Below are positions 8,854-33,476 of a stretch of DNA of 38,358 nucleotides, one piece after another. The number at the start of each line of letters is the position of its first letter. Within the stretch, counting starts at the first letter, position 1. The position numbers and the translations under genes were made by a program. Origin of the DNA: a virus (lineage: Duplodnaviria; Heunggongvirae; Uroviricota; Caudoviricetes); the IMG/VR virus record IMGVR_UViG_3300045988_093140; one strand, written 5' to 3'. The notes below the pieces were generated by a model that ran no database searches, was not told the DNA's origin, and saw only the letters and a program-made list of their open reading frames with translations.

Positions 8854-8894
8854 GGACTCCTCCACAGAGAAACAATGGCCCCGAAGGGCCATGA

Positions 8895-10308: not shown

Positions 10309-10317
10309 AAACATCCC

Positions 10318-10923: not shown

Positions 10924-11617
10924 CCGGGACTGCAGTGTTTCCCGGACATCATCCGGTAGATGGCTGTAGGGGTTGCCATCCACCTTATGGCTGCCGCTGT
11001 AAATCAGCGTGATTTCCACGCCCTGTTTCTCCAGCGCAGCACCGTAATTACTGTGAGCCATCATGACGCCGATGGAGCCTGTCCGGGCGGTCTGCGTGAC
11101 CAGACGCCGGGAGGCGGCGCTGGCAAGCAACTGACCTGCACTGCAGTTCATGTCGTTGGCCAGCGCCCATACCGGCTTTATGTCACGCACACGGGCGATG
11201 ATGTCAGCGCAGTCAAATGCCCCTGCCACCATTCCGCCGGGCGTGTCCATATCGAGCAGAATGCCGTCCACCATCGGGTCGCTGGCAGCCTGTTGCAGAC
11301 GGGCGATAATGCCGTTGTAACCGGTCATCCCCGAATACGGCTGCAGCGCCCGTGTCCGGCTGACCAGCGTGCCGGAAACCGGCAGCACGGCGATGCCGTT
11401 CATGACCTGATAACTGCGGGCCTGTCGTGGTCCGTCATCATCAACGGATAACGCCAGCGTCGCGGGTGCCTCTCCGGCAGTCAGGCTGTCGCCGGATACC
11501 GCATCCGTCAGGCGGCTGATCCCAAGCTGGCCTGCAAGCGCACAAAAGAAAACCCGCGCATAGGCGGGTTCAAGCATCAGCGGCTCATTAAAGGCCATAC
11601 TGGCAATATGCGGGAGA

Positions 11618-11637
<20 letters not shown>
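10318..11637 (-). CDS. C: Capsid assembly protease / minor capsid protein C (GTG start)
   Basis: 439 aa from VTAELRNLPHIASMAFNEPLMLEPAYARVFF..., recognised as lambda gpC; GTG at 11637 overlaps the B 3' end by 20 nt as in lambda. Confidence 0.85.
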
Positions 11638-15318
<3,681 letters not shown>

Positions 15319-15344
<26 letters not shown>

Positions 15345-15864
15345 TCAGCAACCCCGGTATCAGTTCATCCAGCGCGGCTGCTTTGTTCATGGCTTTGATG
15401 ATATCCCGTTTCAGGAAATCAATATGCCGGTTATCCAGCTCAGGAAAACGTCGCTGCACCGACAGAGGAATACCGTCGAGAATACTGGATATTTCCCTTG
15501 CTATACGCGACAGCACGAAAGTACAGAATGCGGTTTCCACCACTTCAGCCGATTCTTTGGCATTTTTCAGTTCCTGCGCCGTCGCCTGAGCACGAGTCAG
15601 GCGATGGCGCTCAAATTCAAGTGTTCCTGGGTGAAGATCTGCCTCGCTGGCCAGCCGCAGTTCTTCAACCTCCCGGCGCAGCTTTTCGTTCTCAATTTCA
15701 GCATCCCTTTCGGCATACCATTTTATGACGGCGGCAGAGTCATAAAGCACCTCATTACCCTTGCCACCGCCTCGCAGAACGGGCATTCCCTGCTCTTGCC
15801 AGTTCTGAATGGTACGGATACTCGCACCGAAAATATCAGCCAGCTGCTTTTTGTTGACTTCCAT
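15319..15864 (-). CDS. Nu1: Terminase small subunit Nu1
   Basis: 181 aa (lambda Nu1 length), MEVNKKQLADIFGASIRTIQNWQEQGMPVLRGGGKGNEVLYDSAAVIKWY... Confidence 0.95.
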
Positions 15865-16000
15865 TGTTCATTCCACGGACAAAAACAGAGAAAGGAAACG
15901 ACAGAGGCCAAAAAGCCCGTTTTCAGCATCTGTCGTTTCCTTTCTTTTCAGGGGGTGTTTTAAATAAAAACATGAAGTTACGGCGAAGAAGAACGGAAAC

Positions 16001-16135: not shown

Positions 16136-16153
16136 GTGCGACCACGGTCGCAC
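16136..16153. repeat. sopC-like 18-bp palindrome GTGCGACCACGGTCGCAC, copy 1
   Basis: Exact inverted repeat; core GACCACGGTC shared with the F-plasmid SopB binding site as I recall it. Confidence 0.6.
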
Positions 16154-16167
16154 AGCAATGAATCAAC

Positions 16168-16236
16168 ATCCTGCATGCTCGCGCAGAGGAGTTCCCCGTC
16201 GGACTACGGTCATGGTTAATGCGGGAATACAGCGAC
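16168..16236. repeat. 68-bp direct repeat, left copy, flanking the AT-rich cassette
   Basis: ctcgcgcagaggagttccccgtcggactacggtcatggttaatgcgggaatacagcgacgatacagcgc; second copy at 17963-18032 with 5 mismatches. Confidence 0.9.
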
Positions 16237-16362
16237 GATACAGCGCATGATGTGTCAGGCTTGAATACCTTTATCCGTTAAAAGGGATATCAGTTAAGTT
16301 ATCCCGTGCAGGGTATAAGCCATTATCAAAGCCACTCAGTAGCGAATGGCTTTTGTAATGGA

Positions 16363-16812
16363 CTATTTAATTAGTGATGCTGCGTATTCGATTAGATATA
16401 ACTTAGGTGCCAGCCAAATTTTTAACCATGTCATATTGGCTACTACAGAAATAATAAAACTGAACCATAGAATAAAAACTGCTACTAATGGTAAGACAAA
16501 ACCACTTAACCTACCGTCACTTTCCCAAATCATAGTCGGTTTGTATTTAGGCTGTCCATTATCGCATGAGCGTCCTTCATTATCGAACTTACCAATTTCA
16601 ACTTTTTTGCACTGTTTCTTCATAAACCAAATAACCAGCGGAATTGTTGAAATGGCTATTAATGTTTTAATCAGGCTATCAACCATATTCCATACCAGCA
16701 ACTGATGAACAACATCCGGAATTTGAGCCTGACTGAATACAATGGCGGAATCAATTCCATCGCTGGCCTTCTTCAATAAATCAACAAGAATTTTATTTGC
16801 TTCTTCTTGCAT
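16363..16812 (-). CDS. Hypothetical small membrane protein, two predicted TM helices, in AT-rich cassette
   Basis: 149 aa ORF with ATG at 16812 and AGGA 8 nt upstream; hydrophobic stretches LIKTLIAISTIPLVIWFM and GFVLPLVAVFILWFSFIISVVA; low GC. Confidence 0.7.
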   Translation of the reverse strand: MQEEANKILVDLLKKASDGIDSAIVFSQAQIPDVVHQLLVWNMVDSLIKTLIAISTIPLVIWFMKKQCKKVEIGKFDNEGRSCDNGQPKYKPTMIWESDGRLSGFVLPLVAVFILWFSFIISVVANMTWLKIWLAPKLYLIEYAASLIK

Positions 16813-16937
16813 GTTTATATCCTGTAAGTTGTAAGTCTGTTCGAAAAAAAAACAAACAACTACGAGAGACAGAAAAAATATCTCAGGCTCTCTTTCTATA
16901 AGCTTTTAGTTGAGGATGTTCTGCAAAACAAAACTGG

Positions 16938-17798
16938 TTAGTTATGTAACTGCTTCCGGAATACAACAGCCGACGTGCTACAACGTAAAATTCGCTTGAT
17001 TGTGGCAGTTGAGGAAACAGACTTGCATTTCTCAACATCATCAATAATGACCACATCCGGTACAGGAATGACGCGGGTATGCAATGTTTTTGCACTAATA
17101 ACATCACAGCCATTCAGTGGTCGAATATCTGCATCTTCAGGCACTACCAGAAGCACACGTTTTTCCGGTGCAGAAAAGCCAGCAGCAAGAGTGCGTGACA
17201 ATAAAGTCATTCCGCTGCGTGGCTTCATACAAATTTCAGAAATATGATTCTTTTCGTCCAAATGATGCTGGACATCATTTTTATCATCATTCAACAACTC
17301 TGCTGTTAATACAATCCCTGCTGTCTCAGATTTCCAGGAAATGCTGATATCCTGATCATCTGCATCAACATCATATTTCATCGAGTAAGGACTAAAGCTA
17401 CGTCCAACGAACGCATCATTTACCAGTACACGCCCACCCTGTCTGACCTGAAAGTCAACGCGCCCTGAAAGCTGATTTGCTGTTACAAGCAATGCCTTTT
17501 TTCTTTTTGTTTTATTGCTCATTGCCACCAACTGTTCAGCCATCTCTCTTGTCACACTACCAGAAACTCTTTCTTGAATTTTCACAGAAAATTTTCTGGA
17601 TGTAGTAGCATCGACATTAAAAAATCTGGATGTCATCAGGCAGTTATTAACAATTGGCATCAGCTCACTTACGATTGTAAAAAATTCCCGGTAAAGCTCA
17701 TTTTGCTTTTCAACACACAGCTTTCCACAATCGTCCAGCTTACGCTCAAGAGCACTTAACCTTTCCATTATTGAATTAATTTTTTGCAACTCTTTCAT
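16938..17798 (-). CDS. Hypothetical cytoplasmic protein, 287 aa, N-terminal coiled coil, in AT-rich cassette
   Basis: ATG at 17798 preceded by AGGAGG (MKELQKINSIMERLSALERKLDD...); the track ORF extends further upstream only because there is no in-frame stop; no family recognised. Confidence 0.7.
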   Translation of the reverse strand: MKELQKINSIMERLSALERKLDDCGKLCVEKQNELYREFFTIVSELMPIVNNCLMTSRFFNVDATTSRKFSVKIQERVSGSVTREMAEQLVAMSNKTKRKKALLVTANQLSGRVDFQVRQGGRVLVNDAFVGRSFSPYSMKYDVDADDQDISISWKSETAGIVLTAELLNDDKNDVQHHLDEKNHISEICMKPRSGMTLLSRTLAAGFSAPEKRVLLVVPEDADIRPLNGCDVISAKTLHTRVIPVPDVVIIDDVEKCKSVSSTATIKRILRCSTSAVVFRKQLHN

Positions 17799-17821
17799 CA
17801 AAACCTCCTGACAAAGATACC

Positions 17822-17839
17822 GTGCGACCACGGTCGCAC
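17822..17839. repeat. sopC-like 18-bp palindrome, copy 2 (extends to 20 bp, 17821-17840), 22 bp upstream of the cassette start codon
   Basis: cGTGCGACCACGGTCGCACg. Confidence 0.6.
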
Positions 17840-17962
17840 GCTCCTGAATACATGCCCTGTTTCTTCCACCCTCGCACAGGACTGGCGAACATGAGGGACA
17901 AACCCGCGAATCAATAGCGCGGTAAAAACCCGGTGTGCATCGTTTTTGATTATTCCCGCACA

Positions 17963-18032
17963 CTCGCGCAGAAGGAGTTCCCCGTCGGGCTACGGTCATA
18001 GTTAATGCGGGAATACGGCGACGATGCAGCGC
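17963..18032. repeat. 68-bp direct repeat, right copy
   Basis: ctcgcgcagaaggagttccccgtcgggctacggtcatagttaatgcgggaatacggcgacgatgcagcgc. Confidence 0.9.
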
Positions 18033-18042
18033 GGAATTTAGC

Positions 18043-18060
18043 GTGCGACCACGGTCGCAC
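18043..18060. repeat. sopC-like 18-bp palindrome, copy 3
   Basis: GTGCGACCACGGTCGCAC. Confidence 0.6.
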
Positions 18061-18079
18061 ACGAGAAACAAAGAGATTT

Positions 18080-18391
18080 TTATGCTACAGAGGAACAAGC
18101 TGGCGGGTAATTCAGCGTAGTGAATACCGGCATCTCCATCTTGTATGCGTAATGATACTCAGCAGTTGCTCCAGCAGACGCTTTCCAGCCAGGAAGCATC
18201 AAAATAGCATCAGCAGAACGAAGCATTGCAAAGCAAATATCCATGTATTCACGTTGCGTCAGGCCATTGGGTAAAGTGGCTGGATTCAGGACCGAATGAC
18301 CATGACGTGACAAACGCTCAGCCTCTTTATTAAAGGCGTCACGATTAAAATTCTCATATCCCGTCATTGGTCCGGCAATATAAATTTTCAT
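18080..18391 (-). CDS. Small conserved prophage protein, DUF4406 / nucleoside 2-deoxyribosyltransferase-like fold (recalled)
   Basis: 103 aa, MKIYIAGPMTGYENFNRDAF...; ATG confirmed at 18391. Confidence 0.6.
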   Translation of the reverse strand: MKIYIAGPMTGYENFNRDAFNKEAERLSRHGHSVLNPATLPNGLTQREYMDICFAMLRSADAILMLPGWKASAGATAEYHYAYKMEMPVFTTLNYPPACSSVA

Positions 18392-18432
18392 TTACTATCC
18401 AACAAATTAAGTTAGTTTTTGATGCAGATGGA

Positions 18433-18894
18433 TTAATTCAGGCATTGCGTCCTGATGTACTCCTGCAAATATCCAACCTGTTTCGTCACTGTGACGATTC
18501 GCTCTCTGAGGATGAAATAATCCCGTTCAGCGGAGTCAGTAAGTCGGGGGCCGGTAGCATCGCCCAGGCCGCCGGTGATGGTCGTTCCGTTCGCGGGACA
18601 TCTGGCGTTGAGGTGCAGCCCACACTTGCCAGTGCGAACACAACGCTGCAAATCATCAAGCTGCTTTTTGGCATCAGCTAAGTCCTTCGTGTATTTGGCA
18701 TCCAGAGCCGCTACATCACGCTGGCGGATCTGCATGTCTTTGATGGTAGCGTTCGCCAGCTTCAACTCTCTGGCGTTTTTGTCGCGCTGCTCTTTATAGG
18801 AGATGGCGTTATCACGGTAATGATTAACAGCCAACGACAGGCAGACGATGATGCAGATAACCAGTGTGGAGATAATCGCGGTGACTCTGCTCAT
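18433..18894 (-). CDS. Rz: Spanin, inner-membrane subunit Rz
   Basis: From [49 protein letters not shown]... recognised as lambda Rz; N-terminal TM plus coiled coil. Confidence 0.9.
18486..18674 (-). CDS. Rz1: Spanin, outer-membrane lipoprotein subunit Rz1, embedded in the +1 frame of Rz (start codon uncertain)
   Basis: Lipobox ALASVGC followed by Pro-rich ...[24 protein letters not shown], resembling lambda Rz1; fully nested in Rz. Confidence 0.7.
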
Positions 18895-19391
18895 TACTGC
18901 CCCCACAAACAGACTTCACGCTCAATCTCACGGCGAGTCATCAGCCCTTTCCATTGCTTACCGCCAGCATATGTCCAGCGACGTAGTTGATCACATGCAC
19001 CTTTGATATCGCCCTGGTTGATTTTGCGAAGAAGCGTCGATGTTCTGAAATTGCCTGCACCCACGTTGTAAACGAACGAGTAAAGAGCACCACGCGTTGT
19101 TTCCGGTATATCGACTTTGATGTACGGGTTAATTTGTCTGGCGACAGTAGCAAGGTCTTTATTCAGGAGAGCTTTGCATTCAGCTTCGGTATACGTTTTA
19201 CCGAGCATAATGTCTTTTCCTGTATGCCCGTAACATACAGTCCATACACCAACGATGTCTTTGTAGGGGTTATGTTTCACACCTTCCAGACCATCGTTGC
19301 CGCTCGGACCAGAGATGAGCACAGATGCTATGGCAATAGCCCCGCCACCAATAGCAGTTGCGACAGCTTTGCGTAATGATGACTGCATCAT
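18894..19391 (-). CDS. R: SAR endolysin (lysozyme), phage 21 R-type
   Basis: 165 aa; N-terminal weakly hydrophobic Gly/Ala-rich signal-anchor-release segment [20 protein letters not shown] followed by lysozyme-like domain. Confidence 0.9.
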
Positions 19392-19660
19392 ATTTCCTTC
19401 GGTGCTCTCTTTCCCAATTCACCAATAACCATCGCCGTGGCGGAAATATTATTGGCATCAGTTTTATCCAATATGTCCTGCAATATCTTCGTGCGCTTCA
19501 TCTGCTCGCGTTTATTGAGCCGGTATGTAAGTACACCGAGGATAATGCTGAACGCGACACCGATAATGAAGCCCCAATCCTGCAATGACAGGCTGGCAAA
19601 GAACGCAGTAAGACCAGCACTACCATAAGGTGCGCTGCTGTATCGTTCATCCATCTTCAT
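19388..19660 (-). CDS. S: Holin (pinholin-like) with dual-start motif M-K-M
   Basis: 90 aa, two hydrophobic segments, charged C-terminus, overlaps the R start by 4 nt; ATG at 19660 and second ATG two codons in. Confidence 0.8.
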
Positions 19661-19756
19661 ATCTCTTACCTCGCAATAGTTGCTGAGGTTTCGGCTTGGA
19701 AACTATACGGCGAGAAATAACCCCCATCAAAAACGGCAGGGGAATATATTCTTCAG

Positions 19757-20833
19757 TTACTCAAATAACTTTTTCACTTCATCAACTGTCTGAAGATAAC
19801 GTTCACCCTCAATCTCAATACCGATTGCCTGACGACCTAACTTCAGCGCGGCTTTAATAGTAGAGCCTGATCCCATAAAGAAATCGGCAACGATATCTCC
19901 GGGGCGTGAACTACTTTTTATAATATGTTCCATCATCGCTGCAGGTTTTTCACATGGGTGCTTGCCAGGATAATATTGCACAGGAGGAAACTCCCATACA
20001 TCGGTATAAGGTACATCAGCAGTAACATGAAATGGGCGGCGCAAATTTTCATACTGAGCCTTCAAATCATCATACTGCTTCTTTACTTCCTCATAATGCA
20101 ATTTCAGATCGCTATAACGCTTTTCATGTTCTGAATAATCAACATTAAAAGGATATGGACACGGGACACCGAGTGAATCTGCCTTCCTGCGAAATAATTC
20201 GCATAGTTTATTAAAATCAATTAATGATGGAAGCCGCCACTGCGAATAAGAAAACCAGTGCGAACACATCTGCTTTCCTGTCGCTGAATTAATGTCTGCG
20301 GCTGATATATCTAACTGACGGCGAGCCAGCGAAAAAGCATCAATTAGTGGAGAAAAAATATTTTTTCTTAAATCTGCACATTTTGAAGCATAACCTGACT
20401 GACCTTTAGCATAACCTGACGCGCCGTAATGCTCTGCAAATAATATTCTTTCAGTAGCAGGAAAATAAGCCCTTAAACTTTCTTTATGACAACCGCGCCA
20501 CATACCACTGGGTTTAGCCCAAATGATATGGTTCAGAACATTGAAACGGTCGCGAGTTAATAATTCAATTTTTGACGCAAGGCGAGAGCCGGTAAACATA
20601 TACAGGCTGCCATTAGGGGCCAATATCCGCCAAAATTCTGCCAAAAATTCGTCAATCCACCCCAAAAAGTCAGCATCGCTATCCCACTGGTTATCCCATG
20701 CGTTAGCCTTTACGCCGAAGTATGGTGGGTCTGTTGCAATCAAATTGACCGAGTTATCAGGGATGGTTTTGATAAATTGCAGAGAATCTGCGCAAACGAG
20801 TTGTGCGCCATGAATATTAGTGGTTTTGAACAT
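19757..20833 (-). CDS. DNA methyltransferase, DPPY motif (N6-adenine or N4-cytosine class), orphan
   Basis: Start at ATG 20833 (MFKTTNIHGAQLVCADSLQFIKTIPDNSVNLIATDPPYF...); C-terminal AdoMet motif FFMGSGST; no adjacent restriction gene. Confidence 0.85.
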   Translation of the reverse strand: MFKTTNIHGAQLVCADSLQFIKTIPDNSVNLIATDPPYFGVKANAWDNQWDSDADFLGWIDEFLAEFWRILAPNGSLYMFTGSRLASKIELLTRDRFNVLNHIIWAKPSGMWRGCHKESLRAYFPATERILFAEHYGASGYAKGQSGYASKCADLRKNIFSPLIDAFSLARRQLDISAADINSATGKQMCSHWFSYSQWRLPSLIDFNKLCELFRRKADSLGVPCPYPFNVDYSEHEKRYSDLKLHYEEVKKQYDDLKAQYENLRRPFHVTADVPYTDVWEFPPVQYYPGKHPCEKPAAMMEHIIKSSSRPGDIVADFFMGSGSTIKAALKLGRQAIGIEIEGERYLQTVDEVKKLFE

Positions 20834-20968
20834 AGCTATTATTTTTTTGCCTGGGTAAGCTAACCCGGCGATGCGCATCGCGGGTGGGCTTTAGGTTCAG
20901 CCTATAGCTCTGGCATGGGTTGACCGCAGGACAAGCTGCAACTTGTCCTGCGCCCACTTTTCAGGCAC

Positions 20969-20996
20969 AAAAAAACCGCCATAAAGGCGGCTTGTT
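20969..20996 (-). terminator. Rho-independent terminator upstream of the methylase and lysis genes (tR'-like)
   Basis: Minus-strand RNA AGCCGCCUUUAUGGCGGUU followed by UUUUUUUG. Confidence 0.5.
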
Positions 20997-21076
20997 GGCT
21001 GTTGGGTACAAAAAACCCAACTTAATAAAACAATAACTAAAAACCGTCATTTTGCCAAGCTTTTTCGTTTTTGTGC

Positions 21077-21094
21077 TGTGCGACCGTGGTCGCA
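21077..21094. repeat. sopC-like 18-bp palindrome, copy 4 (opposite centre orientation, extends to 22 bp), T-runs on both sides
   Basis: ctGTGCGACCGTGGTCGCACag. Confidence 0.6.
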
Positions 21095-21100
21095 CAGTTT

Positions 21101-21328
21101 TTAGAAAGTTGCCTGCTTATATTCATCGGTCAAAGAATATCGACCAGATCCACTACGCTTTGCAACCCCAAAACAGATCATCTGTTCGATGATAAATTCA
21201 ACGGCAACTTGACTCAAAAAACAGGCTTCGCTTAACTCTTTCAGGGAAATGCGTGGGTATCCACGCATAACACATTCCACACTCAGGGCCGCTTCAGTCA
21301 TATTTCCACGAATTTCATTAATATTCAT
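21101..21328 (-). CDS. Hypothetical small protein
   Basis: 75 aa ORF, no family recognised. Confidence 0.45.
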   Translation of the reverse strand: MNINEIRGNMTEAALSVECVMRGYPRISLKELSEACFLSQVAVEFIIEQMICFGVAKRSGSGRYSLTDEYKQATF

Positions 21329-21341
21329 AACGCCTCTCTAA

Positions 21342-21581
21342 TCAATCTTGAAACTGGAAATCAACATCAGCCATAAAGCGGTTCAACTCAGCCAGTTTTG
21401 ACCCCATAGTCCCAACTAAGCGACCAGCCAGTCGGTCTGCTAGGTTGGTACTGTTGAAACCATATTCCTTTTCGAAACGTTCAACCTTCTGCCACAACTC
21501 ATACAGTTCGTTAGCTATCTCCGCAACGTCGTCGCGCATTTTTTCGTTACCTTGATAATTCATAATATCCTCCAAATTCAT
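21342..21581 (-). CDS. Hypothetical small protein
   Basis: 79 aa ORF, no family recognised. Confidence 0.45.
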   Translation of the reverse strand: MNLEDIMNYQGNEKMRDDVAEIANELYELWQKVERFEKEYGFNSTNLADRLAGRLVGTMGSKLAELNRFMADVDFQFQD

Positions 21582-21728
21582 ATAGTTAGTAGGTTATTGC
21601 CCCTCAATGACACGAACTGTAACTCTGCCAAACGAACACATCCAGTGTTATTTTTCACTTTTTAGTGAAATTTTTAATTTGCGCTGTTTTCTCGTTTTGG
21701 TGTATTTTATGGGTATGGAGGCTATAAT

Positions 21729-22040
21729 ATGTTTAACGTGATAACCCACCCTGCAGCACTGGATGAACTGCTTGAACTACCAGATGATTTGCGAGGTCGC
21801 ATGACCAGATTAATTGAGCGACTGGAGAAAGAAGGCAACAAACTGAAGATGCCTCATAGCCGTGTAATAGGTGGAGGGCTTTTTGAACTACGAGTAGGGG
21901 ATAAAAACATCGCAAGAACGCTGTACGCCTACGCGACTGGTAACGAAATTTATCTATTGCATGCATTTGTAAAAAAGACACAGAAAACACCGGTGAAGGC
22001 TATCGAAATCGCCAGAACTCGCCTGAAGGAGATGAACTGA
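21729..22040 (+). CDS. Type II toxin, RelE/ParE superfamily (HigB-like / Gp49-like), toxin-first operon
   Basis: 103 aa; 4-nt ATGA overlap with the downstream HTH gene; upstream palindrome TCACTTTTTAGTGA. Confidence 0.7.
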   Translation: MFNVITHPAALDELLELPDDLRGRMTRLIERLEKEGNKLKMPHSRVIGGGLFELRVGDKNIARTLYAYATGNEIYLLHAFVKKTQKTPVKAIEIARTRLKEMN

Positions 22041-22327
22041 TGAAAGCGAAAGGCATCCCGTTTAACGAAGTAAAAGAAAAACTCCTCAACACTCCAGAAG
22101 CCGTCAAAGGATATGAAGAGGCCGACAAAGAGCTGGAGATGGTCGAAATGTTATACGAAATGAGGGAAAGAGCAGGTTTAACGAAATCAGCTCTGGCTGA
22201 ACGAATGGGGTTGCGCCCGTCAGCCATCAGCCGCCTGGAAAGCAATCCTTTAGGGGCAAGTATGAAAACTTTGGCTAAATATGCTCATGCCTGCGGCGCA
22301 ACCATCGATATTCGCGCTGTTTATTAA
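22040..22327 (+). CDS. HTH XRE-family antitoxin (HigA-like)
   Basis: 95 aa with HTH segment LTKSALAERMGLRPSAISRLE. Confidence 0.7.
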   Translation: MKAKGIPFNEVKEKLLNTPEAVKGYEEADKELEMVEMLYEMRERAGLTKSALAERMGLRPSAISRLESNPLGASMKTLAKYAHACGATIDIRAVY

Positions 22328-22369
22328 TTAGACCCTTTTACCACCCCGTCCAGAAGGGCGGGGTGTGCA

Positions 22370-22573
22370 TCAATGATGTGAACGCTCAACAGCGATAGTT
22401 TTCTGACAATGCTGGGCAATCTCTCGCGACATGTTGATGAGTCGTGAAACCTCACCAATATGTAGGCTGGCTTCTGGAGAAGCCAGGGTGACGCTAACCA
22501 GATCCAGAACGGCGTCAATATCTCTTAAATTTGAATCGAGTTGTTCAAGAGTTGATACGGCTGCTTCAGACAT
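22370..22573 (-). CDS. Hypothetical small protein
   Basis: 67 aa ORF. Confidence 0.4.
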   Translation of the reverse strand: MSEAAVSTLEQLDSNLRDIDAVLDLVSVTLASPEASLHIGEVSRLINMSREIAQHCQKTIAVERSHH

Positions 22574-22655
22574 TAAATCTCATACCATTTAACTAAAAAA
22601 GGTTATTTATACTGTATAAAATTACAGGGTAAAACTCAAACTTTACGGTCAATTT

Positions 22656-22898
22656 TCAATGAATTAACTGCGTAAACTGCTGTGTGGCCCGATACTTATG
22701 CTCTCTCCCTATGCCACGATCAGCTTTCTCAAGAAGTCCAGTACGGACAGCAGAATCAAGCATCCTTTTAACAATTCTGCTATTTAACCCAACATCAAAA
22801 GCAAGCATCGAAGCGAAAACAAACCCATCACCACCATCAGAAAAGCTCTTTTCGCTCCGTTTTCGTATCATTTCAAAAAGCAATGCCTTTTTATCCAT
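22656..22898 (-). CDS. Hypothetical small protein
   Basis: 80 aa ORF. Confidence 0.45.
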   Translation of the reverse strand: MDKKALLFEMIRKRSEKSFSDGGDGFVFASMLAFDVGLNSRIVKRMLDSAVRTGLLEKADRGIGREHKYRATQQFTQLIH

Positions 22899-22916
22899 TT
22901 ATCCCTCCGTGACCAG

Positions 22917-23243
22917 TCACGCTTTGAGCGCAAGTTTCAACCTCGTGGTTGTAAGGTGGCATGAGCCTTCGCCATCAAAAATGCATTCTGAAACAGGCAT
23001 TTTTTGACCACATCGCGGGCAAGTAGTAGATAGCTGCTTCTGCAGCTCCTTATAGTTTTTCCTGATCAGCAAACCAATGACTTCGTTCTCCGAATATGGA
23101 ACTCGCCCTGGTCTACGCAATACACAAATTTCCCCCAACATACGTAACTCGTCAGGTTCTAGAATCCAGTCCCGTCTTGATGTGCCTTCCTTCTTCAACC
23201 GTTCCCTGCGTCTCCTTTGCCGTTCTGCCGGTGTCAGCGCCAT
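22917..23243 (-). CDS. Hypothetical zinc-ribbon protein
   Basis: 108 aa, basic N-terminus, CPRCGQK...C...C motif. Confidence 0.5.
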   Translation of the reverse strand: MALTPAERQRRRRERLKKEGTSRRDWILEPDELRMLGEICVLRRPGRVPYSENEVIGLLIRKNYKELQKQLSTTCPRCGQKMPVSECIFDGEGSCHLTTTRLKLALKA

Positions 23244-23258
23244 AAATCCTCCTGAAAA

Positions 23259-23672
23259 TTACTTAACCCAATTAACTACACCGCCAGCGGCCACAACCGC
23301 CCTTTCACAGTCACGCTCATATCTCAAAGGTTGAAATACACCATCAATAAAATATTTATCTCCACCAAACGCTGCAGGAAGTGAAACAGAAAACTGAATA
23401 CGATTATCATCCGGCACCACCGGCAGTGGCTGGGCTACATATAATGACTGAACATACCAGCCCTTTGATAACCAACTGTCAGCAATGTTTTTACTCCGGG
23501 TTATTGCCGGAATACCTAAGCCATTGTCTGAATGCAGCCATGCCACCGGTTCTGCTTCCAGCGAGGCTAACGCTATTTCATAAGCCCGGCGCTCAATATT
23601 GTCTCTCACGTCCAGGCTGCCTATGCGCTCTTTGATTTCTTTAATCAGTTCTTTGTCGGTAAAAGTGCTCAT
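23259..23672 (-). CDS. Hypothetical phage protein, paralog A of a tandem pair
   Basis: ATG at 23672 with AAGGAG upstream; shares motif ASLEAEPVAW with the upstream neighbour. Confidence 0.6.
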   Translation of the reverse strand: MSTFTDKELIKEIKERIGSLDVRDNIERRAYEIALASLEAEPVAWLHSDNGLGIPAITRSKNIADSWLSKGWYVQSLYVAQPLPVVPDDNRIQFSVSLPAAFGGDKYFIDGVFQPLRYERDCERAVVAAGGVVNWVK

Positions 23673-23673
23673 A

Positions 23674-24123
23674 TCAATCTCCTTTGGTACCAATGTTTAC
23701 AGCCTGGCAAGCCTCTTTGAGCACCCAGTCAACAGCGTCTTTCCATGCTCCGGTTTCGACTGGCGGATTTTCACGCTTAACCTGTTCATAGAAGCGCACT
23801 GCTTTAATCAATCCTTCTGGTGTCAGTGGCACAGGCGGGGCAGTGAATAACGCCTGAATTTCATAGTTCGGTCTGTCGTTGCAATCCTCTTTTGTCGGTA
23901 CATATTTCCAGTCACCAACCCACGGCTCCCCCTGTGAGTCCGTAATGCCTTTTTTCACGTAGCGATATCGCCATGCCATCGGTTCTGCTTCCAGCGATGC
24001 CTGTGCGATACGAAACACATTGGCAAGCAGGCTGTCTGAGGATTGGTTATCGTGCGCCGGGTCGCTCAGGAAGCCATTGATGAATGATTTAATCTTCGAG
24101 TTTTCTCTGGTAATAGTGGTCAT
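23674..24123 (-). CDS. Hypothetical phage protein, paralog B of a tandem pair
   Basis: ATG at 24123 (MTTITRENSKIK...); motif ASLEAEPMAW. Confidence 0.6.
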   Translation of the reverse strand: MTTITRENSKIKSFINGFLSDPAHDNQSSDSLLANVFRIAQASLEAEPMAWRYRYVKKGITDSQGEPWVGDWKYVPTKEDCNDRPNYEIQALFTAPPVPLTPEGLIKAVRFYEQVKRENPPVETGAWKDAVDWVLKEACQAVNIGTKGD

Positions 24124-24124
24124 A

Positions 24125-24877
24125 TCACTCTCCTTTGCGAATCTCTGCGGCAAAGTCAGTCGCATGCTCACCGAGTAGTTTCCAGTTATCGCGTATATCA
24201 GATGCAAGCGACTGTTCGGATTTTGAGTTACATTTCTGTGCAAACATTTCCACCCCCTGCGCCCGCACTTCAGACAGGAAAGAGTCGGTGGCTGGGGTTT
24301 CGACATTAGGTCGAAGCTCATAATCACAAACTCTTTCAATCCATGGTGATACTCTGTCGCATTTCCTCTTCTTGCGTTCACCGACCTTGGTTGCCTGCTG
24401 AATAATTACCCCCCAGCAAATGCTTTCGACCTCTTCGCTCCATCCATCGCAAGCATCGCCTCTATAGTCGTCAATTGCAGCCTCAGCAGCAGCGATAGCC
24501 TCCTCAGCAGTTTTGTGACACTCGAAACTAAATTCAGAGCCATATGAGAAATACATAGCCCCGGCCTTCAGTCTTGCATTCTCCGCCGCCAGAGCCGCGC
24601 AACTGGCCTCCAGCTCTGCAATGCGTTTGCTTTGAGCCTCTCGTTCATCCAGCAGTGCCTGCACTACTTCAGGGTTGAAAGCTGCGATATAATGAGCGTT
24701 GTTCTCTGCGTTTTTCTGTCCGTCAAAGCCGGTCCATTTGATAACGTCTTCACATCGTTTATCACCGGGCGTATGCACTGCATACGTACCAGTACCCGGC
24801 GAAATAAATGCGACCCATTCACCCTGTGTTGCCTGTTTTGCTATCTCACGCAGTACCTGATAATTGATTTCACTCAC
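24125..24877 (-). CDS. Ead/Ea22-like protein (GTG start)
   Basis: GTG at 24877 preceded by AGGAGG; NYQVLREIAKQATQGEW motif and coiled-coil segment typical of Ea22-like proteins (recalled). Confidence 0.6.
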   Translation of the reverse strand: MSEINYQVLREIAKQATQGEWVAFISPGTGTYAVHTPGDKRCEDVIKWTGFDGQKNAENNAHYIAAFNPEVVQALLDEREAQSKRIAELEASCAALAAENARLKAGAMYFSYGSEFSFECHKTAEEAIAAAEAAIDDYRGDACDGWSEEVESICWGVIIQQATKVGERKKRKCDRVSPWIERVCDYELRPNVETPATDSFLSEVRAQGVEMFAQKCNSKSEQSLASDIRDNWKLLGEHATDFAAEIRKGE

Positions 24878-25296
24878 AGTACTACCTCCTGAAGATTTCC
24901 CTGATAAAACGCCAGCACACGCTGCATAACTTCGCTCTTCTGGCAATCGTGACAAATCATGTTCAAGCGCCTGTCGTAACGACGTATTTCTCCGTCAGGT
25001 AATGACCAGATAAGGTCTGGATCAACCACTACCGATTTCTTCGGCTTTACTCTTGATAGCTTTTTACGGGCGTTTTGCCAGTCCTTGCGTGCTTGTGCAG
25101 ACAGAAATATCCCGGAGCCAGAGATATACAAATCACCACTGGCAGCAAGCTCTCTTGATAAACGACTAACAGCACACCGGCTAATACCAGTTTCATCCGC
25201 AAGTTGCCTAACCGTTCCTCGTCCATTCAGGCGTACGAGTTCCACAATTTGTTTATTCAGTTCTTCCCTCTGTTCTGGTGTAAAAGCCTTTGCCAT
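24874..25296 (-). CDS. HTH-containing phage protein
   Basis: 140 aa, MAKAFTPEQ..., HTH-like VRQLADETGISRCAVSRL; AAGGAGA RBS. Confidence 0.6.
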   Translation of the reverse strand: MAKAFTPEQREELNKQIVELVRLNGRGTVRQLADETGISRCAVSRLSRELAASGDLYISGSGIFLSAQARKDWQNARKKLSRVKPKKSVVVDPDLIWSLPDGEIRRYDRRLNMICHDCQKSEVMQRVLAFYQGNLQEVVL

Positions 25297-25895
25297 TACG
25301 ATTCTCCTTGCCCTTTTACAAGACGGGAGAAAATTGCGGATACATATTTAGCCTGATGAATAGCATCAGCCAGGGCATTGTGTCGTTCGCCATCAAATGG
25401 CATATCTTTTTTAGGATTAAAACCAATAAACTGACCAAGATTAACGATTGTTCGAACATCCTGATCATTAAAATATTCCCACGGACAGGCTAAGCCAACG
25501 CGCTCATAAGCACCGCGTAAAATTACATTATCGAACGTTGCTCCATTTCCCCATACTTTCAATTTTTTTAAATTACATGCATGGCAAGTAATAAAGTGTG
25601 ATAATTCAAAAAGTGCATCCTTAATATCAAGGGCATCATTAGTACAAATTGCGGCTCTGGCTTCCTTGCTCTGTTTCAACCACCATAAAATGGTATCACC
25701 ATCGGCGACACCACCATTCAACATCGAGCTTCTGAGATTCACTGGCACATAAAAAGTAGGACCTAATTCCTCATTTTCTGGAGAAAAAAACACTGCCCCG
25801 ATAGAAACAATTGGAGCACATGTGTTAGTACCCATTGTTTCAAGGTCAATCATTACATCAGACCGTTTCCTGTCGTAAATAATCTGATTAGTCAC
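25296..25895 (-). CDS. DEDD-family 3'-5' exonuclease (GTG start, or ATG at 25853)
   Basis: IDLETMG N-terminal exonuclease motif and later H..ALAD motif; GAGGAG RBS before the GTG. Confidence 0.65.
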   Translation of the reverse strand: MTNQIIYDRKRSDVMIDLETMGTNTCAPIVSIGAVFFSPENEELGPTFYVPVNLRSSMLNGGVADGDTILWWLKQSKEARAAICTNDALDIKDALFELSHFITCHACNLKKLKVWGNGATFDNVILRGAYERVGLACPWEYFNDQDVRTIVNLGQFIGFNPKKDMPFDGERHNALADAIHQAKYVSAIFSRLVKGQGES

Positions 25896-25918
25896 GAATA
25901 ATTCTCCTCAACGTTTAT

Positions 25919-26122
25919 CTATACCCAAATTTTCTGTTGATATGTTCTGGATGGTTTTGGCGTTCTTTCTGATTCAGGTAAATGAACATAAACGCAATAT
26001 CCATCACCTAAAAAATCAGAACGAACAACCAGAACTTTCTTACCACGCCGCCGATAAGTATCTGAAAGACGCTCTGCTTCATCATGCGTCATCGGCCCCT
26101 GCTTAAATGGCGTTATTTTCAT
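25919..26122 (-). CDS. Hypothetical small protein (start uncertain)
   Basis: ORF-track start at 26146 falls inside the sopC-like palindrome; first ATG at 26122. Confidence 0.4.
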   Translation of the reverse strand: MKITPFKQGPMTHDEAERLSDTYRRRGKKVLVVRSDFLGDGYCVYVHLPESERTPKPSRTYQQKIWV

Positions 26123-26423
26123 TTTCTTGTGCGACCACGGTCGCACCCTCTCTGATTTCCAAGTAACGCTTAATCCAAAGATTTTCTATATGCTTATTAC
26201 CTGGCTGATTTGATAAATACCAATCGGCAATTACAGACTGCTTATTACTATCTGGTCGTGTCCTGTAACCACAAGTTGGACACCAGATAACATATTCATT
26301 TCTTACCCCCGAATACCTTAATTCTGGCTTCGACGGTTTCCTGAACATAACTTGTTTACAAAGGCAGAATGGCACTTCCTGCCCGATGGCGTTTGATGAT
26401 TTCACTGCGCTTCTCCGCCGCAT
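26103..26423 (-). CDS. Zinc-finger protein, possibly Lar-family restriction-alleviation-like (start uncertain)
   Basis: CLC...CPTCG cysteine pairs; family assignment from memory only. Confidence 0.4.
   Translation of the reverse strand: MRRRSAVKSSNAIGQEVPFCLCKQVMFRKPSKPELRYSGVRNEYVIWCPTCGYRTRPDSNKQSVIADWYLSNQPGNKHIENLWIKRYLEIREGATVVAQENENNAI
26129..26146. repeat. sopC-like 18-bp palindrome, copy 5, inside the 3' end of the zinc-finger ORF
   Basis: GTGCGACCACGGTCGCAC; encodes ATVVAQ in the ORF frame. Confidence 0.6.
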
Positions 26424-27066
26424 TTAATAATGCAGTTCGATTTAAGCTCAGACATCGCGACTTAATTAAAAGCCAGCGTTCTTTATAATCTTGTCTCCAG
26501 CTATCAATAGATATATTCAGCAGAAAACTCAGATGCCTGTCCTGTTCTCTCTCATCAACTGCCTCAGCACACGTAAGTTCTGATTTAACCTGCTGTGCCG
26601 CGTAATAAATCAATTTCCGCATGGCTTTTTTCGTGGAGGCCTTCATTTTTTTAAAGCCGCCCCCCGAATGAGCAACCAGAAAATCAAGCCATAACCACTG
26701 ACAAACAATCACATCATTGTTGTAATCTGGCTTGCATCCGTAGCAATAATAAAGCCAGGCTGATTCCTCGTTATTCAACTGACCAATAGCCCTGCGCCAG
26801 CTGGCGCTCTGAAAATCAATATCAGTGAGCAACATTGATGATTGTTTAAATGTTTTCCCCTGGTGGAATCTTACCGGCTCAGCAGGAACGGACACTTCGT
26901 ATGAGTTATCATCCCCCACACTGATTGACCGGACTGGTTTATTGTTAAACCGTCCTGATCTACCGAGACGCATCTGCTCAAGCTGGACCTCCAGAATGCC
27001 ACGCTGGCGATAATGAACATCAGCCAATGCCGTAGAGACGCAGCTGCGTATATACTCAAGCTCCAC
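26356..27066 (-). CDS. Early protein directly downstream of cro; possibly the late antiterminator Q by position (GTG start)
   Basis: GTG at 27066 with GGAGA RBS 9 nt upstream, 236 aa; assignment rests on position only. Confidence 0.35.
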   Translation of the reverse strand: MELEYIRSCVSTALADVHYRQRGILEVQLEQMRLGRSGRFNNKPVRSISVGDDNSYEVSVPAEPVRFHQGKTFKQSSMLLTDIDFQSASWRRAIGQLNNEESAWLYYCYGCKPDYNNDVIVCQWLWLDFLVAHSGGGFKKMKASTKKAMRKLIYYAAQQVKSELTCAEAVDEREQDRHLSFLLNISIDSWRQDYKERWLLIKSRCLSLNRTALLNAAEKRSEIIKRHRAGSAILPL

Positions 27067-27277
27067 GCTTACGACTCTCCTTAATCGACTGCTTTGCCCG
27101 CCGAGTTGTAAAGTCACTCTTCAGCTTATAAGCAGTACGAACTTCAATATCGCTTTGCCGCAATGAAGGAATCTCTCCAGCGGTTAACCATTGGTAAACA
27201 GCTCCGGGTGTTACACCTACCCCTGCCGCTGCTTTTTCTACACTGCCAAAGTGGCGAATAAGTTCTTCTGGTTTCAT
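27056..27277 (-). CDS. Cro-like HTH regulator
   Basis: From MKPEELIRHFGSVEKAAAGVGVTPGAVYQW... (73 aa); divergent from the CI-like gene. Confidence 0.7.
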   Translation of the reverse strand: MKPEELIRHFGSVEKAAAGVGVTPGAVYQWLTAGEIPSLRQSDIEVRTAYKLKSDFTTRRAKQSIKESRKRGA

Positions 27278-27306
27278 GTTGTTATTATAAACAATAAACA
27301 ACAATT

Positions 27307-27346
27307 AAAGCCAGCTATAATAAATAAATTTTATAGCCAGCTATAA
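27307..27346. promoter_or_regulatory. Immunity-region operators: two copies of AGCCAGCTATAA in the cro/cI divergent promoter region
   Basis: aaAGCCAGCTATAA at 27308-27321 and ttatAGCCAGCTATAA at 27331-27346, the second with 7-bp inverted arms TTATAGC/GCTATAA. Confidence 0.5.
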
Positions 27347-27368
27347 GAAGATCATTTATGATTAAGCT

Positions 27369-27965
27369 ATGAAAACACGAGGCGAACGACTGAAAGCACG
27401 CCGTTTAGAGATGAAGCTGACGTTGCGAGAAGTTGCTGAGGCTGTCGATATCTCTATTGCAGGCGTCCAAAACTTAGAACGTGGCGACGTAATGCCGTCA
27501 CTGGAGATAGGTATTGCCCTGGCTAAATGCTTACGCAAGCCAGTGCATTGGGTGCTGTATGGGACAGAATATGACCCTGATCGCATTCCTGTTATTGGCA
27601 CAACTGAAAGTGGACCTGATGAAGAGTGGAAGCCAGGACAGGTTCCAAATACTGAGCGATTCCTGCCATTCATCAGCCAGCGCAATACTGTTTATGCGTT
27701 AACTATCAGCAATCTTACGCAGGGAAACTATCAGCCAGGCGATTTTCTCCTGGTCGATTCTGCGCTGGAACTGGTCCCCGGCGAGGATGTTCTGGTTCGT
27801 GATACTGCAGGAAATATCACTATCCAGCGCCTGGCCCGTTTTGATGATGAAAATTACTATCTGGATGGAACAAACTCACAACGCGCCATCTTCAGGAAAA
27901 GCGATCTTGAATTTGTTCACCAAATAGTCGGAACGATCAAATCATTCATGGTTGAGGGTAGATGA
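27369..27965 (+). CDS. Prophage repressor, CI/LexA-like (HTH plus S24 peptidase domain)
   Basis: 198 aa; N-terminal HTH LTLREVAEAVDISIAGVQNLERG, C-terminal S24-like region. Confidence 0.8.
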   Translation: MKTRGERLKARRLEMKLTLREVAEAVDISIAGVQNLERGDVMPSLEIGIALAKCLRKPVHWVLYGTEYDPDRIPVIGTTESGPDEEWKPGQVPNTERFLPFISQRNTVYALTISNLTQGNYQPGDFLLVDSALELVPGEDVLVRDTAGNITIQRLARFDDENYYLDGTNSQRAIFRKSDLEFVHQIVGTIKSFMVEGR

Positions 27966-28060
27966 CTTAATACGGGGTTTATTGTTTGCTGTAAATCTGG
28001 TTTAATGCAGGGCATATGTTCTGTGGGTTGACTCAGGTTACAGCAGCAGAAAAAAGACGA

Positions 28061-28095
28061 AAAAAAACCCGAGTCGGCAAACTCGGGTCCTTTTC
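28061..28095 (+). terminator. Rho-independent terminator between repressor and repA
   Basis: A-run, hairpin CCCGAGT-cggcaa-ACTCGGG, then TCCTTTT. Confidence 0.5.
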
Positions 28096-28210
28096 AGGAA
28101 GCAGCCACAACAACGCGACAGATTCCGTCAATTCAAGATGCGTTTATTGTGGCTGCTCCTGCGGATTTTTTCAACCCGAAAAAACATAATTCGCATGGAA
28201 TGGCTAAAAA

Positions 28211-31200
28211 ATGACATTAAACGATTTCTATGCGGATCGCTTTGGCAGCGATCCGTTCTCGCTAATTGAAGCAGCACGGGATGAACTAACCGAGCTGGCA
28301 CAGATGGCTGGTATCAACTGGCCTGCCTGTTCCGACAACATCCAACTCAACCCTCGCGGGGGGGTTGAGCGTTACTCTTCATACAATAAAACATCTCCAG
28401 AAGCTCTCGAAAAGAGCCTGAAAGGACGCGTAGAAATTTACTCCAGGCTGGAACACAGCAAAGGGATTGATTACCCGTTCATTAACTTCGTCCATAAAGG
28501 CAGCGATGCTGGCTCATGGAGCGGTTTCTCCTTCCTGTTTTCTGAATATCGCCGTGAGCAACAACGGAATAATGCGACCGTGGTCGCACAACCGGAAGAA
28601 GAACGGGAAAGAATAGAACGTCAGGCCGAAGCACGTCGTCGCCGTGAAGAACAAAAACGAATTAATGACCTGAAAAACAACCAAATGGACCATGAACGTT
28701 TGCTGGGATGGCTGGCATTCCACAGCGCGTGGGAACATGCTCAGGCTGAAGACGGCTCATGGCCATATGCGATTAAAAAAGGTATTCGTGACGTTTTTAG
28801 TTCATGTGATGTGCGTCGCGTGACCAGTCACGACAGTGCGAAATGGAGCCGGGGGCCAACCACATATATGGCTATCCCTCTGGCTCACCTGGACGGTCGT
28901 TATGATGGTCGTATTGTGGGTTGGCAGCGAATCGACAAACAAGGTGGGAAATACCAGACCAGCGCAGTAACCAGCGGCGATTTCGTCGGTGCCTGCTTTG
29001 TTATCGGTGAGCTGAAAGGGGCGCAAAACATCGCTGTTACAGAAGGTTTTGCTACTGGTGCATCCATCTGGCTTGCCACGAAAAAAGATAAACGCTTTGA
29101 CGCTGTGGTTGTCGCTGTATCCGCTAACAACATGGTTCATGTTGTGGAACAACTGGTAAACATGTACCCGGCGGCAAAAATCACCTGCGCACTGGATAAT
29201 GACCGGAAATCTGCCACAGAAGGAAAAGGGAATACCGGCCTGCGGACTGGCTATGAAATCTTATCTAAATTCAACGATGTCCGCTGCGTCTACCCAACTT
29301 TTGAAGACGATCCGCAAATGGAGTGCAGTGACTTCAACGACCTGCACAAACTACGTGGACTTCGTGAAACAGCACGTCAACTATTCGCAACAGCAAACCG
29401 CCTGAAAACCGGTACTGATTTGCTATCTCTGACACTCAACCGCCTGAAGACAATTAAGCGGGATAACCGCCGTACTTTTGCCAAAGAGCTGCTGAGAGCG
29501 GTAGATATTGGCATGCTGACCTGTCCGGTTCCTAACAGCCCGTCAGATTTATTTAACATGTTCTGTATCGTTCTGCGTGAAATGGGGCTGGAAAATATCT
29601 ATCGCGCTACGGTAAAAGACCATATTGCCCGTCGCCTGAATAAAAAGTGCCGTATTGCCCAGGCTCCGCGCTCTTTCAGCGAACGCATAACTGATCCCAA
29701 TAAACGCCCTCAACATATCACCTATAAGCGTTTTGATACTTCGGTAATGACCGATGACGTCCTGAAGTACGTGCAATCACTACAGGGGATAGTCATCGTC
29801 CGTGCTGGTATGGGTTCCGGCAAATCTACTGGATTGTTACGACCGTTAATGCATAGCTCAGAACGTGGTATCTCTGTAGCTCACCGTGTTTCCCTTATTG
29901 GTGGTCTGTGGGAAATGATGACTGAAGGAAAAGGTGTAAAAGCCGATATCCTGCACTATCAGGACCCTGGCTATCAGGAAATGGCCCCATACGCCAGTAA
30001 ACTGACCATCTGCATAAACTCGATTGTTAAAAACTGCTGGCAACCGTTGATGCGCCAGCACGACTATTTTGGCTTTGACGAGGCAACACAAGGGCTACGT
30101 GCCGTTCTTTCCGGTCGGGCTATGGAAAACCCGGTGGCTGTATTCAATACGCTAATTGATGCGCTGGCCAGAACGGAACAACACCCAATCATGGTGGATG
30201 CTGATGCGAACGATCTGCTGGTTGACCTGGCTGAACTGGCTATGAAACGCCGCGAAGAACTCGGTTTACCCGCATGGCTGCAGATCCACGTAATTGAATT
30301 ACCTGTTGATGTTCGCAACCGCGAAACAGGTGAGCCAATCCGGGTTTTTTATACAGAAAAAGATCGCATTATGACCGAGGTGGTGAAAGCTGTATCGGAT
30401 GGCGAAAAAATTATGTTGGCCACCGACAGCTCCACCTTTGCAGAAGATGTGACCGCCACCCTGAGAATGCATTTTCCTGGTAAGAAATTTCTGTGTGTAA
30501 ACCAGAAAAACAAACCAGAGCCAGAAGTTGAAGCATTTACCAATCAACCGAAAAAGATGGTCAAAAAATACGACGGCCTGATTTATAGCCCGTCTATTTC
30601 ATCCGGCGTGTCGATTGAGCAAAAACATTTTGACCGTCATTTCGGCATGTTCTGTGGTGAAGTTGTACCCAGCGACGCAGTGCAAATGCTACGCCGCGAC
30701 CGTACAGCAAAAGAATTTATTATCGGCTTTGATAAAGCTCGCGCAAAACGTGAAACTGACCCGCAAAAAATAGAACGAGCATTCGCCCAGGCATTGCTTG
30801 CTACCGCAGGCATGAACGGTGAACTGACGGATGTCGTTTTCGATGGCGACCGTATATCAATGGGGGTGGCCAATACCGACTTTACCAGGATGAAAATTAA
30901 AGCAGCCGCAATTGAAGCGTCTGCGCGTAACGACTACGCCAGCAACATGATCTGCATCATGCACAGCGACGGTTATAAGGTATCGCCGCTGGCCACCGAT
31001 TATGCTGCGAATGATATCGGTAAAGATCTGCGTAAAGAAGCGCGGGATATTGTGTGGGAACAGACACTGGATCTGCATCTCAATACAGAAACTCCACAAG
31101 AATCAGAGCGTGAAGAACTGCTAAAAAAACGCGCGCTGACGCTTGAAGAACAGGCAAAACTTGTCCGCTGGGATATTGAGAACGAACTGAAACTACCGGT

Positions 31201-33119: not shown

Positions 33120-33476
33120 ATGAAAGTAATTAGCATAAAAATCATTTTGATTTTATCAATTATTGCTCTTGCTATTGTATTTTTCTGGCCTGAATCTAAT
33201 AAAGGCCCAGAGTGCTATAAGGTTAGTGATGAACAGGCAAGAGAATTTGTAAAAAATGACTTTTTGAAAAAAATAACGCGTTGGAATAACGATGTACAAC
33301 TTCTCGGTACAGAAGCCCCAAAAATTACGTGGGAAAAGATTGAAAGAAGCTTAACAGATGTTAAAGATGAAAAAACGCTTCTCGTCCCATTTAAAGCCGA
33401 AGGCCCGGAAGGTAAGAGAATGTATTATGGAATGTACCATTGCAAGGAAGGTTATGTTGAATATGCAAATGATTGA
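33120..33476 (+). CDS. cmi: Colicin M immunity protein
   Basis: 118 aa, N-terminal TM anchor, recognised as Cmi from the translation; convergent with cma. Confidence 0.85.
   Translation: MKVISIKIILILSIIALAIVFFWPESNKGPECYKVSDEQAREFVKNDFLKKITRWNNDVQLLGTEAPKITWEKIERSLTDVKDEKTLLVPFKAEGPEGKRMYYGMYHCKEGYVEYAND

Follow-up and report, generated by a model that had tools for sequence, protein, structure and literature searches.

Dispersed N15-type SopB binding sites predicted in a linear plasmid-prophage of Escherichia coli

The stretch of DNA described here, the Caudoviricetes record IMGVR_UViG_3300045988_093140 of IMG/VR (38,358 nucleotides, in the following called the window), comes from a linear plasmid-prophage of E. 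coli that resembles N15 (Ravinvirus) and was assembled as a draft contig, and it carries six scattered copies of an 18-bp palindrome. Very probably these palindromes are binding sites of an N15-type SopB protein, making up the dispersed (parS-like) centromere of a type Ia ParABS (Sop) partition system. The assignment draws on the identity of the palindromes with validated N15 sites, on the orthology of their positions, on the cognate SopAB pair, and on the covariation between the protein and its site; from these we infer binding, spreading, partition activity and a regulatory effect in this phage. A preliminary description of the window had proposed candidate scattered partition centromeres, an interpretation that is supported by the present analysis; the underlying biology was already known, here with six sites instead of the four of N15.

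The six palindromes

A search of the whole window for GTGCGACCRYGGTCGCAC, with up to two mismatches allowed, returned exactly six matches, starting at positions 16136, 17822, 18043, 21078, 26129 and 28572, compared with a mean of 0.01 matches in 100 dinucleotide-preserving shuffles. The same six copies formed the top and largest family from an independent general repeat finder, and no further copy appeared in the window when the search was relaxed to three mismatches and any central dinucleotide. The consensus is GTGCGACC(AC/GT)GGTCGCAC, with the half-site (G)TGCGACC and a 2-bp centre. Five copies are perfect (16136, 17822, 18043, 21078 and 26129), and the copy at 28572, ATGCGACCGTGGTCGCAC, deviates by a single outer mismatch, its first base being A in place of G. 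Four copies (16136, 17822, 18043 and 26129) are centred on AC and two (21078 and 28572) on GT; given the palindromic arms, the AC- and GT-centred copies represent one site in two orientations. Both centre orientations, the outer mismatch in the last copy and a number of copies beyond chance had been reported in the preliminary description and are confirmed by these searches; five of its six starting positions were exact, and the fourth, given as 21077, has to be corrected to 21078.

The start-to-start spacings of 1686, 221, 3035, 5051 and 2443 bp define single sites dispersed among phage genes, and no tandem array was found in the region between 15 and 30 kb of the window. Isolated 7-mer half-sites are rare, with two additional copies of TGCGACC and two of GGTCGCA in the whole window. 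An Rfam scan of the 15–30 kb region gave sub-threshold chance matches only, and folding of a 251-nt stretch with the two close sites was uninformative, the palindromes just pairing with each other.

Positions shared with N15 and phiKO2

The 18-mer of the window is that of the inverted repeats (IRs) IR1–4 of N15, both in the genome sequence and in published oligonucleotides. The '4xIR' N15 centromere was assembled from oligonucleotides containing GTGCGACCACGGTCGCAC, GTGCGACCTCGGTCGCAC and GTGCGACCATGGTCGCAC; foci of N15 SopB form on this array, and none form with a hybrid SopB bearing the DNA-binding domain of F (PMC7205306). According to the same work, F SopB functions with its own site only, N15 SopB being more relaxed (PMC7205306). 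In the N15 genome the pattern is matched four times, within repA at 33479, behind Q at 35930, behind gene 51 at 41124 (20 nt ahead of an annotated −35) and at 45561; these are IR1–4, and together with the 4xIR experiments (PMC7205306) they bear out the statement of the preliminary description that N15 scatters its centromere sites among phage genes. In the record of Klebsiella phage phiKO2 (NC_005857), four 18-bp features are annotated as 'putative plasmid partitioning site': one within repA, one behind Q, one that precedes the −35 of the putative late promoter by 19 nt, and one behind the DUF4406 gene. The window copies at 28572, 26129, 21078 and 18043 occupy the same four positions as the N15 and phiKO2 sites.

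The IR1 orthologue (28572..28589) is located inside repA, where codons 121–127 encode N-ATVVA-Q, in the same place and the same reading frame as N15 33479 and the annotated partitioning site of phiKO2 at 37905. In the alignment of window, N15 and phiKO2 its half-sites are invariant, and the neighbouring codons drift. The IR2 orthologue (26129..26146) lies 209 nt downstream of the antiterminator gene Q (26356–27117, minus strand) and is orthologous to N15 35930 and phiKO2 40345. The IR3 orthologue (21078..21095) comes immediately after the gp51 homologue and precedes the −35 of a putative late promoter by 19 nt. The corresponding spacing amounts to 20 nt in N15 (IR 41124–41141; annotated −35 at 41162) and to 19 nt in phiKO2 (IR 45384–45401; −35 of a 'putative late promoter' annotated at 45421). 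A consensus scan placed the putative Q-dependent late promoter and terminator of the window at 20973..21058 on the minus strand (−35 TTGGCA at 21058–21053, −10 TATTGT ending at 21030, terminator at 20993–20973); the arrangement beside IR3 matches the annotated counterparts in N15 and phiKO2 and points to the same putative function. The IR4 orthologue (18043..18060) lies 19 nt past the stop codon of the DUF4406 gene (18080–18391, minus strand), at the position of the annotated phiKO2 site 48618, which follows gp58/DUF4406.

In the alignments of window, N15 and phiKO2, 16 of the 18 IR columns in the IR4 region are invariant versus 31 of 215 flank columns, such that only the IR is conserved, and in coding or promoter contexts 53–67% of the flank columns are invariant. 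The half-sites themselves do not vary between these genomes of only about 75% identity, variation being limited to the central two bases and one outer base.

The two remaining sites, both with perfect consensus, go beyond this shared set. The first (17822..17839) is situated 23 nt upstream of the ATG of an open reading frame (ORF) of 286 amino acids (16938–17798, minus strand) and at a distance of 221 bp from the IR4 orthologue; a second site at the equivalent position is missing from N15 and phiKO2, and the extra site of the window is also present in PhiR46_1, YDC107_1, pAH01-1, LR883007 and pEC21Z151. The second (16136..16153) occupies a cos-proximal intergenic position and precedes the start codon of the terminase small-subunit gene (ATG at 15864, minus strand) by 272 nt. 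This site is shared by pAH01-1 and two near-identical contigs, L261 and L263; PhiR46_1 and YDC107_1 lack it, and its context recurs in 23 of the surveyed loci.

The same neighbourhood holds an element of about 190 bp in two copies, a full one between the two close sites (17840–18042) and a truncated one adjoining 16136 (16154–16246). Both copies are full-length in pAH01-1, and the element has no Rfam match. Positions 15889–15945, immediately before the gene for the small terminase subunit, hold an inverted repeat of 26 nt with 88% complementarity and a 5-nt spacer, which is presumably part of cos.

The SopA and SopB partner proteins

The preliminary description had placed the sopAB genes outside the window, and this proved to be right: the window opens within the tail-tip gene J and stops about 85 nt before the telN-proximal hairpin telomere, whose palindrome is visible in a near-identical contig (L256), and neither sopA nor sopB lies within it. 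A search for both genes elsewhere in the replicon, also proposed there, found a SopA/SopB pair in an essentially identical replicon, such that a ParB/SopB homologue does accompany the sites. Near-identical contigs were reached via the exact RepA, the 286-amino-acid ORF and tail protein I. One public metagenome contig, 99.995% identical to window 6938–27798 (L261) and 99.87% identical to window 1–11186 (L267), runs past the left end of the window through J, lom and tail-fibre genes, and then through sopB (321 amino acids) and sopA (388 amino acids). These genes are located 7.0–9.1 kb beyond window position 1, with sopB about 23 kb from the nearest site, and no copy of the palindrome was found in this left arm (the part of L267 beyond the window). 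In a second contig, whose RepA is identical and which shows 99.2% identity over 20 kb, sopA and sopB are found beside telN across the telomere site, and complete relatives show the same arrangement of sopAB next to telN.

The SopB of L267 matches the Pfam family PF18090 (SopB_HTH, E 8.5e-25), and its closest solved structure is that of F SopB (PDB 3mky, E 1e-38); the 388-residue SopA is a ParA-type (Walker) ATPase. The recognition helix of SopB in the window lineage is AENIDRNIITRCIN, of the N15 type with the residues DRN, and the N15-type helix AENIDRNIITRC is present in the SopB of the L261/L267 contig. The corresponding helices are AEGIDRNIVNRCMN in N15, AEGVDRNIITRCIS in phiKO2 and AENISRKIITRCIN in F. 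Two residues differ between AENIDRNIITRCIN and the F helix, both flanking the conserved Arg (D/N versus S/K), and it is to the residues flanking this Arg that discrimination of the one differing N15/F nucleotide has been assigned (PMC2910045).

Relation to F sopC and covariation of protein and site

The sopC site of plasmid F is TGGGACCACGGTCCCA (PMC3597684), and the plasmid F sequence carries ten copies of it at 43-bp spacing downstream of sopB. The central GACCACGGTC is common to the window palindromes and the F repeat, and to this extent the preliminary description, which took the core for that of F sopC, was correct. The half-site is, on the other hand, of the N15 type (TGCGACC) and not of the F type (TGGGACC), with one base per half-site differing, and no F-type site exists in the window (searched with the 16-mer TGGGACCACGGTCCCA at up to one mismatch). 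Centromeres of N15 and F are known to differ at one nucleotide per half-site, and the specificity is carried by helix-turn-helix (HTH) residues 177–198 in F and 179–200 in N15 (PMC2910045). A reading of the palindromes as an F-type sopC was rejected, as there is neither a TGGGACC site nor a tandem array.

The behaviour of Yersinia phage PY54 is instructive in this context. Its genome (L253) contains eight perfect and three one-mismatch F-type sites (TGGGACC-NN-GGTCCCA) dispersed throughout and no N15-type site, and the recognition helix of its SpyB protein, AENISRKIIMRCIK with the residues SRK, is F-like. Where the repA codons of the N15-type phages specify ATVVA, those of PY54 specify GTTVP at the orthologous position and in the same frame. 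On this comparison the DNA site has evidently changed with the protein reading it, although RepA had to accept two amino-acid replacements. Among the computational lines of evidence, this covariation, seen in six proteins, speaks most strongly for the palindromes being SopB sites.

Distribution and mosaic breakpoints

Two collections were scanned for the motif; each scan listed at least 120 loci, and the distribution figures are samples. In 185,579 species-representative genomes there were at least 122 occurrences in at least 120 loci. Among the matches listed, 119 of 122 were single copies with a random dinucleotide at the centre, carried by organisms that were unrelated and mainly of high GC content, and the other three stood in N15-like contexts. 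The picture among the listed matches in viral contigs is a different one: 117 of 157 occurrences were in N15-like contexts, 147 of 157 had AC or GT at the centre, and N15 marker genes were present within the fetched stretch at about half of the listed loci. Since the genome matches are single with random centres and the viral matches mostly N15-like, the motif is not a generic host repeat, a possibility that the preliminary description had raised and that was rejected here, the listed matches outside the phage group being unrelated to one another as well as single.

Site number varies within the wider group. N15, phiKO2 and Enterobacter phage MStein-2023a have four sites each, the E. coli lineage has five (PhiR46_1, YDC107_1, LR883007 plasmid 2 and pEC21Z151-46K) to six (pAH01-1, one of them degenerate), and PY54 has 8–11.

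Homology breakpoints between relatives were found exactly at the edges of the 18-mer (window 16136, 17822 and 18043; L004 20837; L005 5901), which suggests recombination through the conserved palindrome. In thirteen loci the left flank of 16136 is joined to the right flank of 17822. One copy of the motif belongs to a lambdoid prophage integrated in a chromosome and is bordered by the left flank known from 17822 and the right flank known from 18043. This orphan N15-type site lies at 5901–5918 of NZ_CP148507.1 (L005), between the DUF4406 gene and the 286-amino-acid ORF, and no sop genes were found in the 10 kb fetched around it.

Proposed mechanism

A SopB dimer (ParB family, SopB HTH domain) would recognise each 16–18-bp inverted repeat by means of its recognition helix and the conserved Arg, further SopB would load and spread onto the flanking DNA to yield partition complexes, and these would stimulate the nucleoid-bound Walker ATPase SopA, such that sister plasmids are separated before division. 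Because the sop operon is located at the far end of the linear replicon, 7–9 kb beyond the left end of the window, the sites would have to work in cis over a long distance. In N15, an individual site stabilises a test plasmid provided with SopAB, and several dispersed sites raise the stability of linear N15 derivatives.

As the sites are interspersed with phage genes, bound SopB probably modulates phage transcription as well, as reported for N15; the Sop system reportedly affects late gene expression there. Candidates for such regulation would be the site 19–20 bp upstream of the late promoter and the site inside repA.

The two extra sites might have a role beyond that of spare centromeres, although we regard this as unlikely. 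They could serve as recombination junctions by which late-region modules are shuffled, with orphans in lambdoid prophages, and/or SopB spreading from the cos-proximal sites could regulate packaging or late genes, the number of sites being tuned to the linear replicon. The notion of recombination junctions arises because the extra sites abut the duplicated element of about 190 bp near cos and because 18-mers coincide with mosaic breakpoints in many relatives.

Alternative explanations

Palindromes between phage gene modules may also be read as RNA hairpins, that is, as intrinsic terminators or attenuators, and the N15 record indeed annotates the IR4 region (45560–45584) as a putative rho-independent terminator. 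A terminator scan flags 17840–17821 (minus strand) as terminator-like, and five of the six copies are intergenic. However, just one of the six copies has a T-rich tail and another lies within the essential repA reading frame, and on these grounds the terminator reading was rejected; moreover, it is the sequence itself, not mere pairing, that is invariant across diverged genomes, compensatory changes are absent, and in PY54 the whole motif switches to the F type along with the SopB helix. The probability left to it is very small. Equally little can be said for operators of another phage DNA-binding protein (the small winged-helix gp51 homologue, Q or the repressor) that would control late or replication genes. 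Such operators would be well placed 19–20 bp upstream of the late promoter, right after the gp51 homologue, with a spacing kept in three phages, and inside repA, but the operators of N15 CB are annotated elsewhere in the N15 record, published work treats these IRs as N15 SopB sites (PMC7205306), and in F, PY54 and the N15 group the type of site changes together with the SopB helix. If bound SopB had a regulatory side-effect, this would in any case be compatible with partition sites and not compete with them. The copies might, finally, be recombination remnants or junctions, a short palindromic mobile or module-boundary element devoid of present function. The cos-proximal sites, whose left and right flanks occur in differing combinations among phages with the IR exactly at the breakpoint, would agree with this, as would the orphan copy in a chromosomal lambdoid prophage. 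Yet the four orthologous positions are kept across phages of Escherichia, Klebsiella and Yersinia, one of them in a coding frame; target-site duplications were not evident in the flank comparisons, which were not specifically directed at them; and breakpoints at the 18-mer are to be expected if selection keeps the 18-mer and recombination uses it as microhomology. This last possibility is considered extremely improbable. Nothing observed pointed to a restriction or methylation target, a reading at which no search was aimed.

Several points weigh against the assignment of the six palindromes as SopB sites. The sopAB genes are absent from the window itself, their presence resting on near-identical public contigs; SopB binding and plasmid stabilisation in this phage are predictions from sequence; the two extra sites are without a tested counterpart in N15 or phiKO2; and the distribution figures come from the samples of at least 120 loci per scan. 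In addition, a copy can be an orphan on a shuffled gene module, as follows from the lambdoid prophage copy with no sop genes in 10 kb.

The replicon

The region is 98% identical to Escherichia phages YDC107_1 and PhiR46_1, the closest records being Ravinvirus; across the genes for replication and immunity its identity with N15 and phiKO2 is about 75%. Positions 1–15864 are occupied by tail and head genes of lambda-like type on the minus strand; then come cos, lysis genes, a DNA methylase and a RelE/HTH pair, in that order, before Q. The repressor gene (27369–27965) and the gene of an N15-type RepA of 1331 amino acids (28211–32206) come after Q, and the protelomerase gene telN (36308–38203, minus strand) is close to the right end. 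The marker set repA, telN, Q and cB indicates a Ravinvirus-type replicon. An exact-protein look-up of the window protelomerase matched no record. The window is a short-read contig, and its last 49 nt (38310–38358) are an untrimmed Illumina Nextera adapter (CTGTCTCTTATACACATCTCCGAGCCCACGAGAC, index, then ATCTCGT).

The RelE/ParE-type toxin (Gp49 family) and HTH antitoxin pair at 21729–22327 on the plus strand is the counterpart of N15 genes 49 and 48 and is a second plasmid-maintenance module near the centromere sites. Between repA and telN lie a colicin-M-like ORF (33527–34342, minus strand, 271 amino acids) and a YebF-like ORF (33120–33476, plus strand, 118 amino acids), both labels being Pfam tags of identical genes in L255. 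Toxin cassettes have recently been described in telomere phages (PMC12042878), and this pair may be a cassette of the kind reported (PMC12042878). Fold-back assemblies through the hairpin telomere, in which the right arm is an inverted duplicate and telN appears twice, were encountered in CP025712.1 (L001), NZ_LR883007.1 (L251) and GCA_042176185.2 (L256/L257); the two records examined in full (L001 and L251) have no sopAB.

Significance and comparison with known systems

A widespread group of N15-like telomere phages of E. coli thus keeps the N15 partition design of single scattered SopB sites with no array. The current understanding of partition is unchanged, and the result will not surprise a specialist. 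Its value lies in part in annotation, as the sites are unmarked in the closest public records and one N15 copy is annotated as a terminator. Beyond this, F and PY54 versus N15 provide a clean natural example of a ParB recognition helix that co-evolves with its site.

N15 itself is the nearest model. It shares with the window the identical 18-bp consensus GTGCGACC-NN-GGTCGCAC, the dispersal of sites among phage genes far from sopAB, the four site positions (repA, after Q, before the late promoter and near the DUF4406 gene), the replicon type (repA, telN, cB, Q) and the N15-type SopB recognition helix. In contrast to N15 with four sites, the window has six, a second one 221 bp from the IR4 orthologue and another next to cos; its head and tail genes resemble those of lambda and are related to the N15 genes only in part, and the SopB of the relative PhiR46_1 is about 74% identical to N15 SopB. 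The phage phiKO2 agrees with the window in the 18-mer and in the four positions, including the 19-nt spacing from the putative late promoter −35, and differs in having four sites, none of them at the two extra positions; its sites are predictions, as are those of the window. PY54 with its SpyA/SpyB system is likewise a linear plasmid-prophage with many dispersed SopB-type palindromes, several of which have orthologous positions in repA and behind the Q and DUF4406 genes, whereas its sites are of the F type and more numerous (eight perfect and three with one mismatch) and its SpyB helix reads SRK. Plasmid F, finally, has the central GACCACGGTC, a homologous SopB (about 49–51% identical), a ParA-type partner and the partition mechanism in common with the window. 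Unlike the single dispersed sites of the window, F sopC consists of 10–12 tandem 43-bp repeats directly downstream of sopB, a place where in the near-identical contig L267 a tail-fibre assembly gene begins about 30 bp after the sopB stop codon, and F SopB is reported to be non-functional with N15-type sites.

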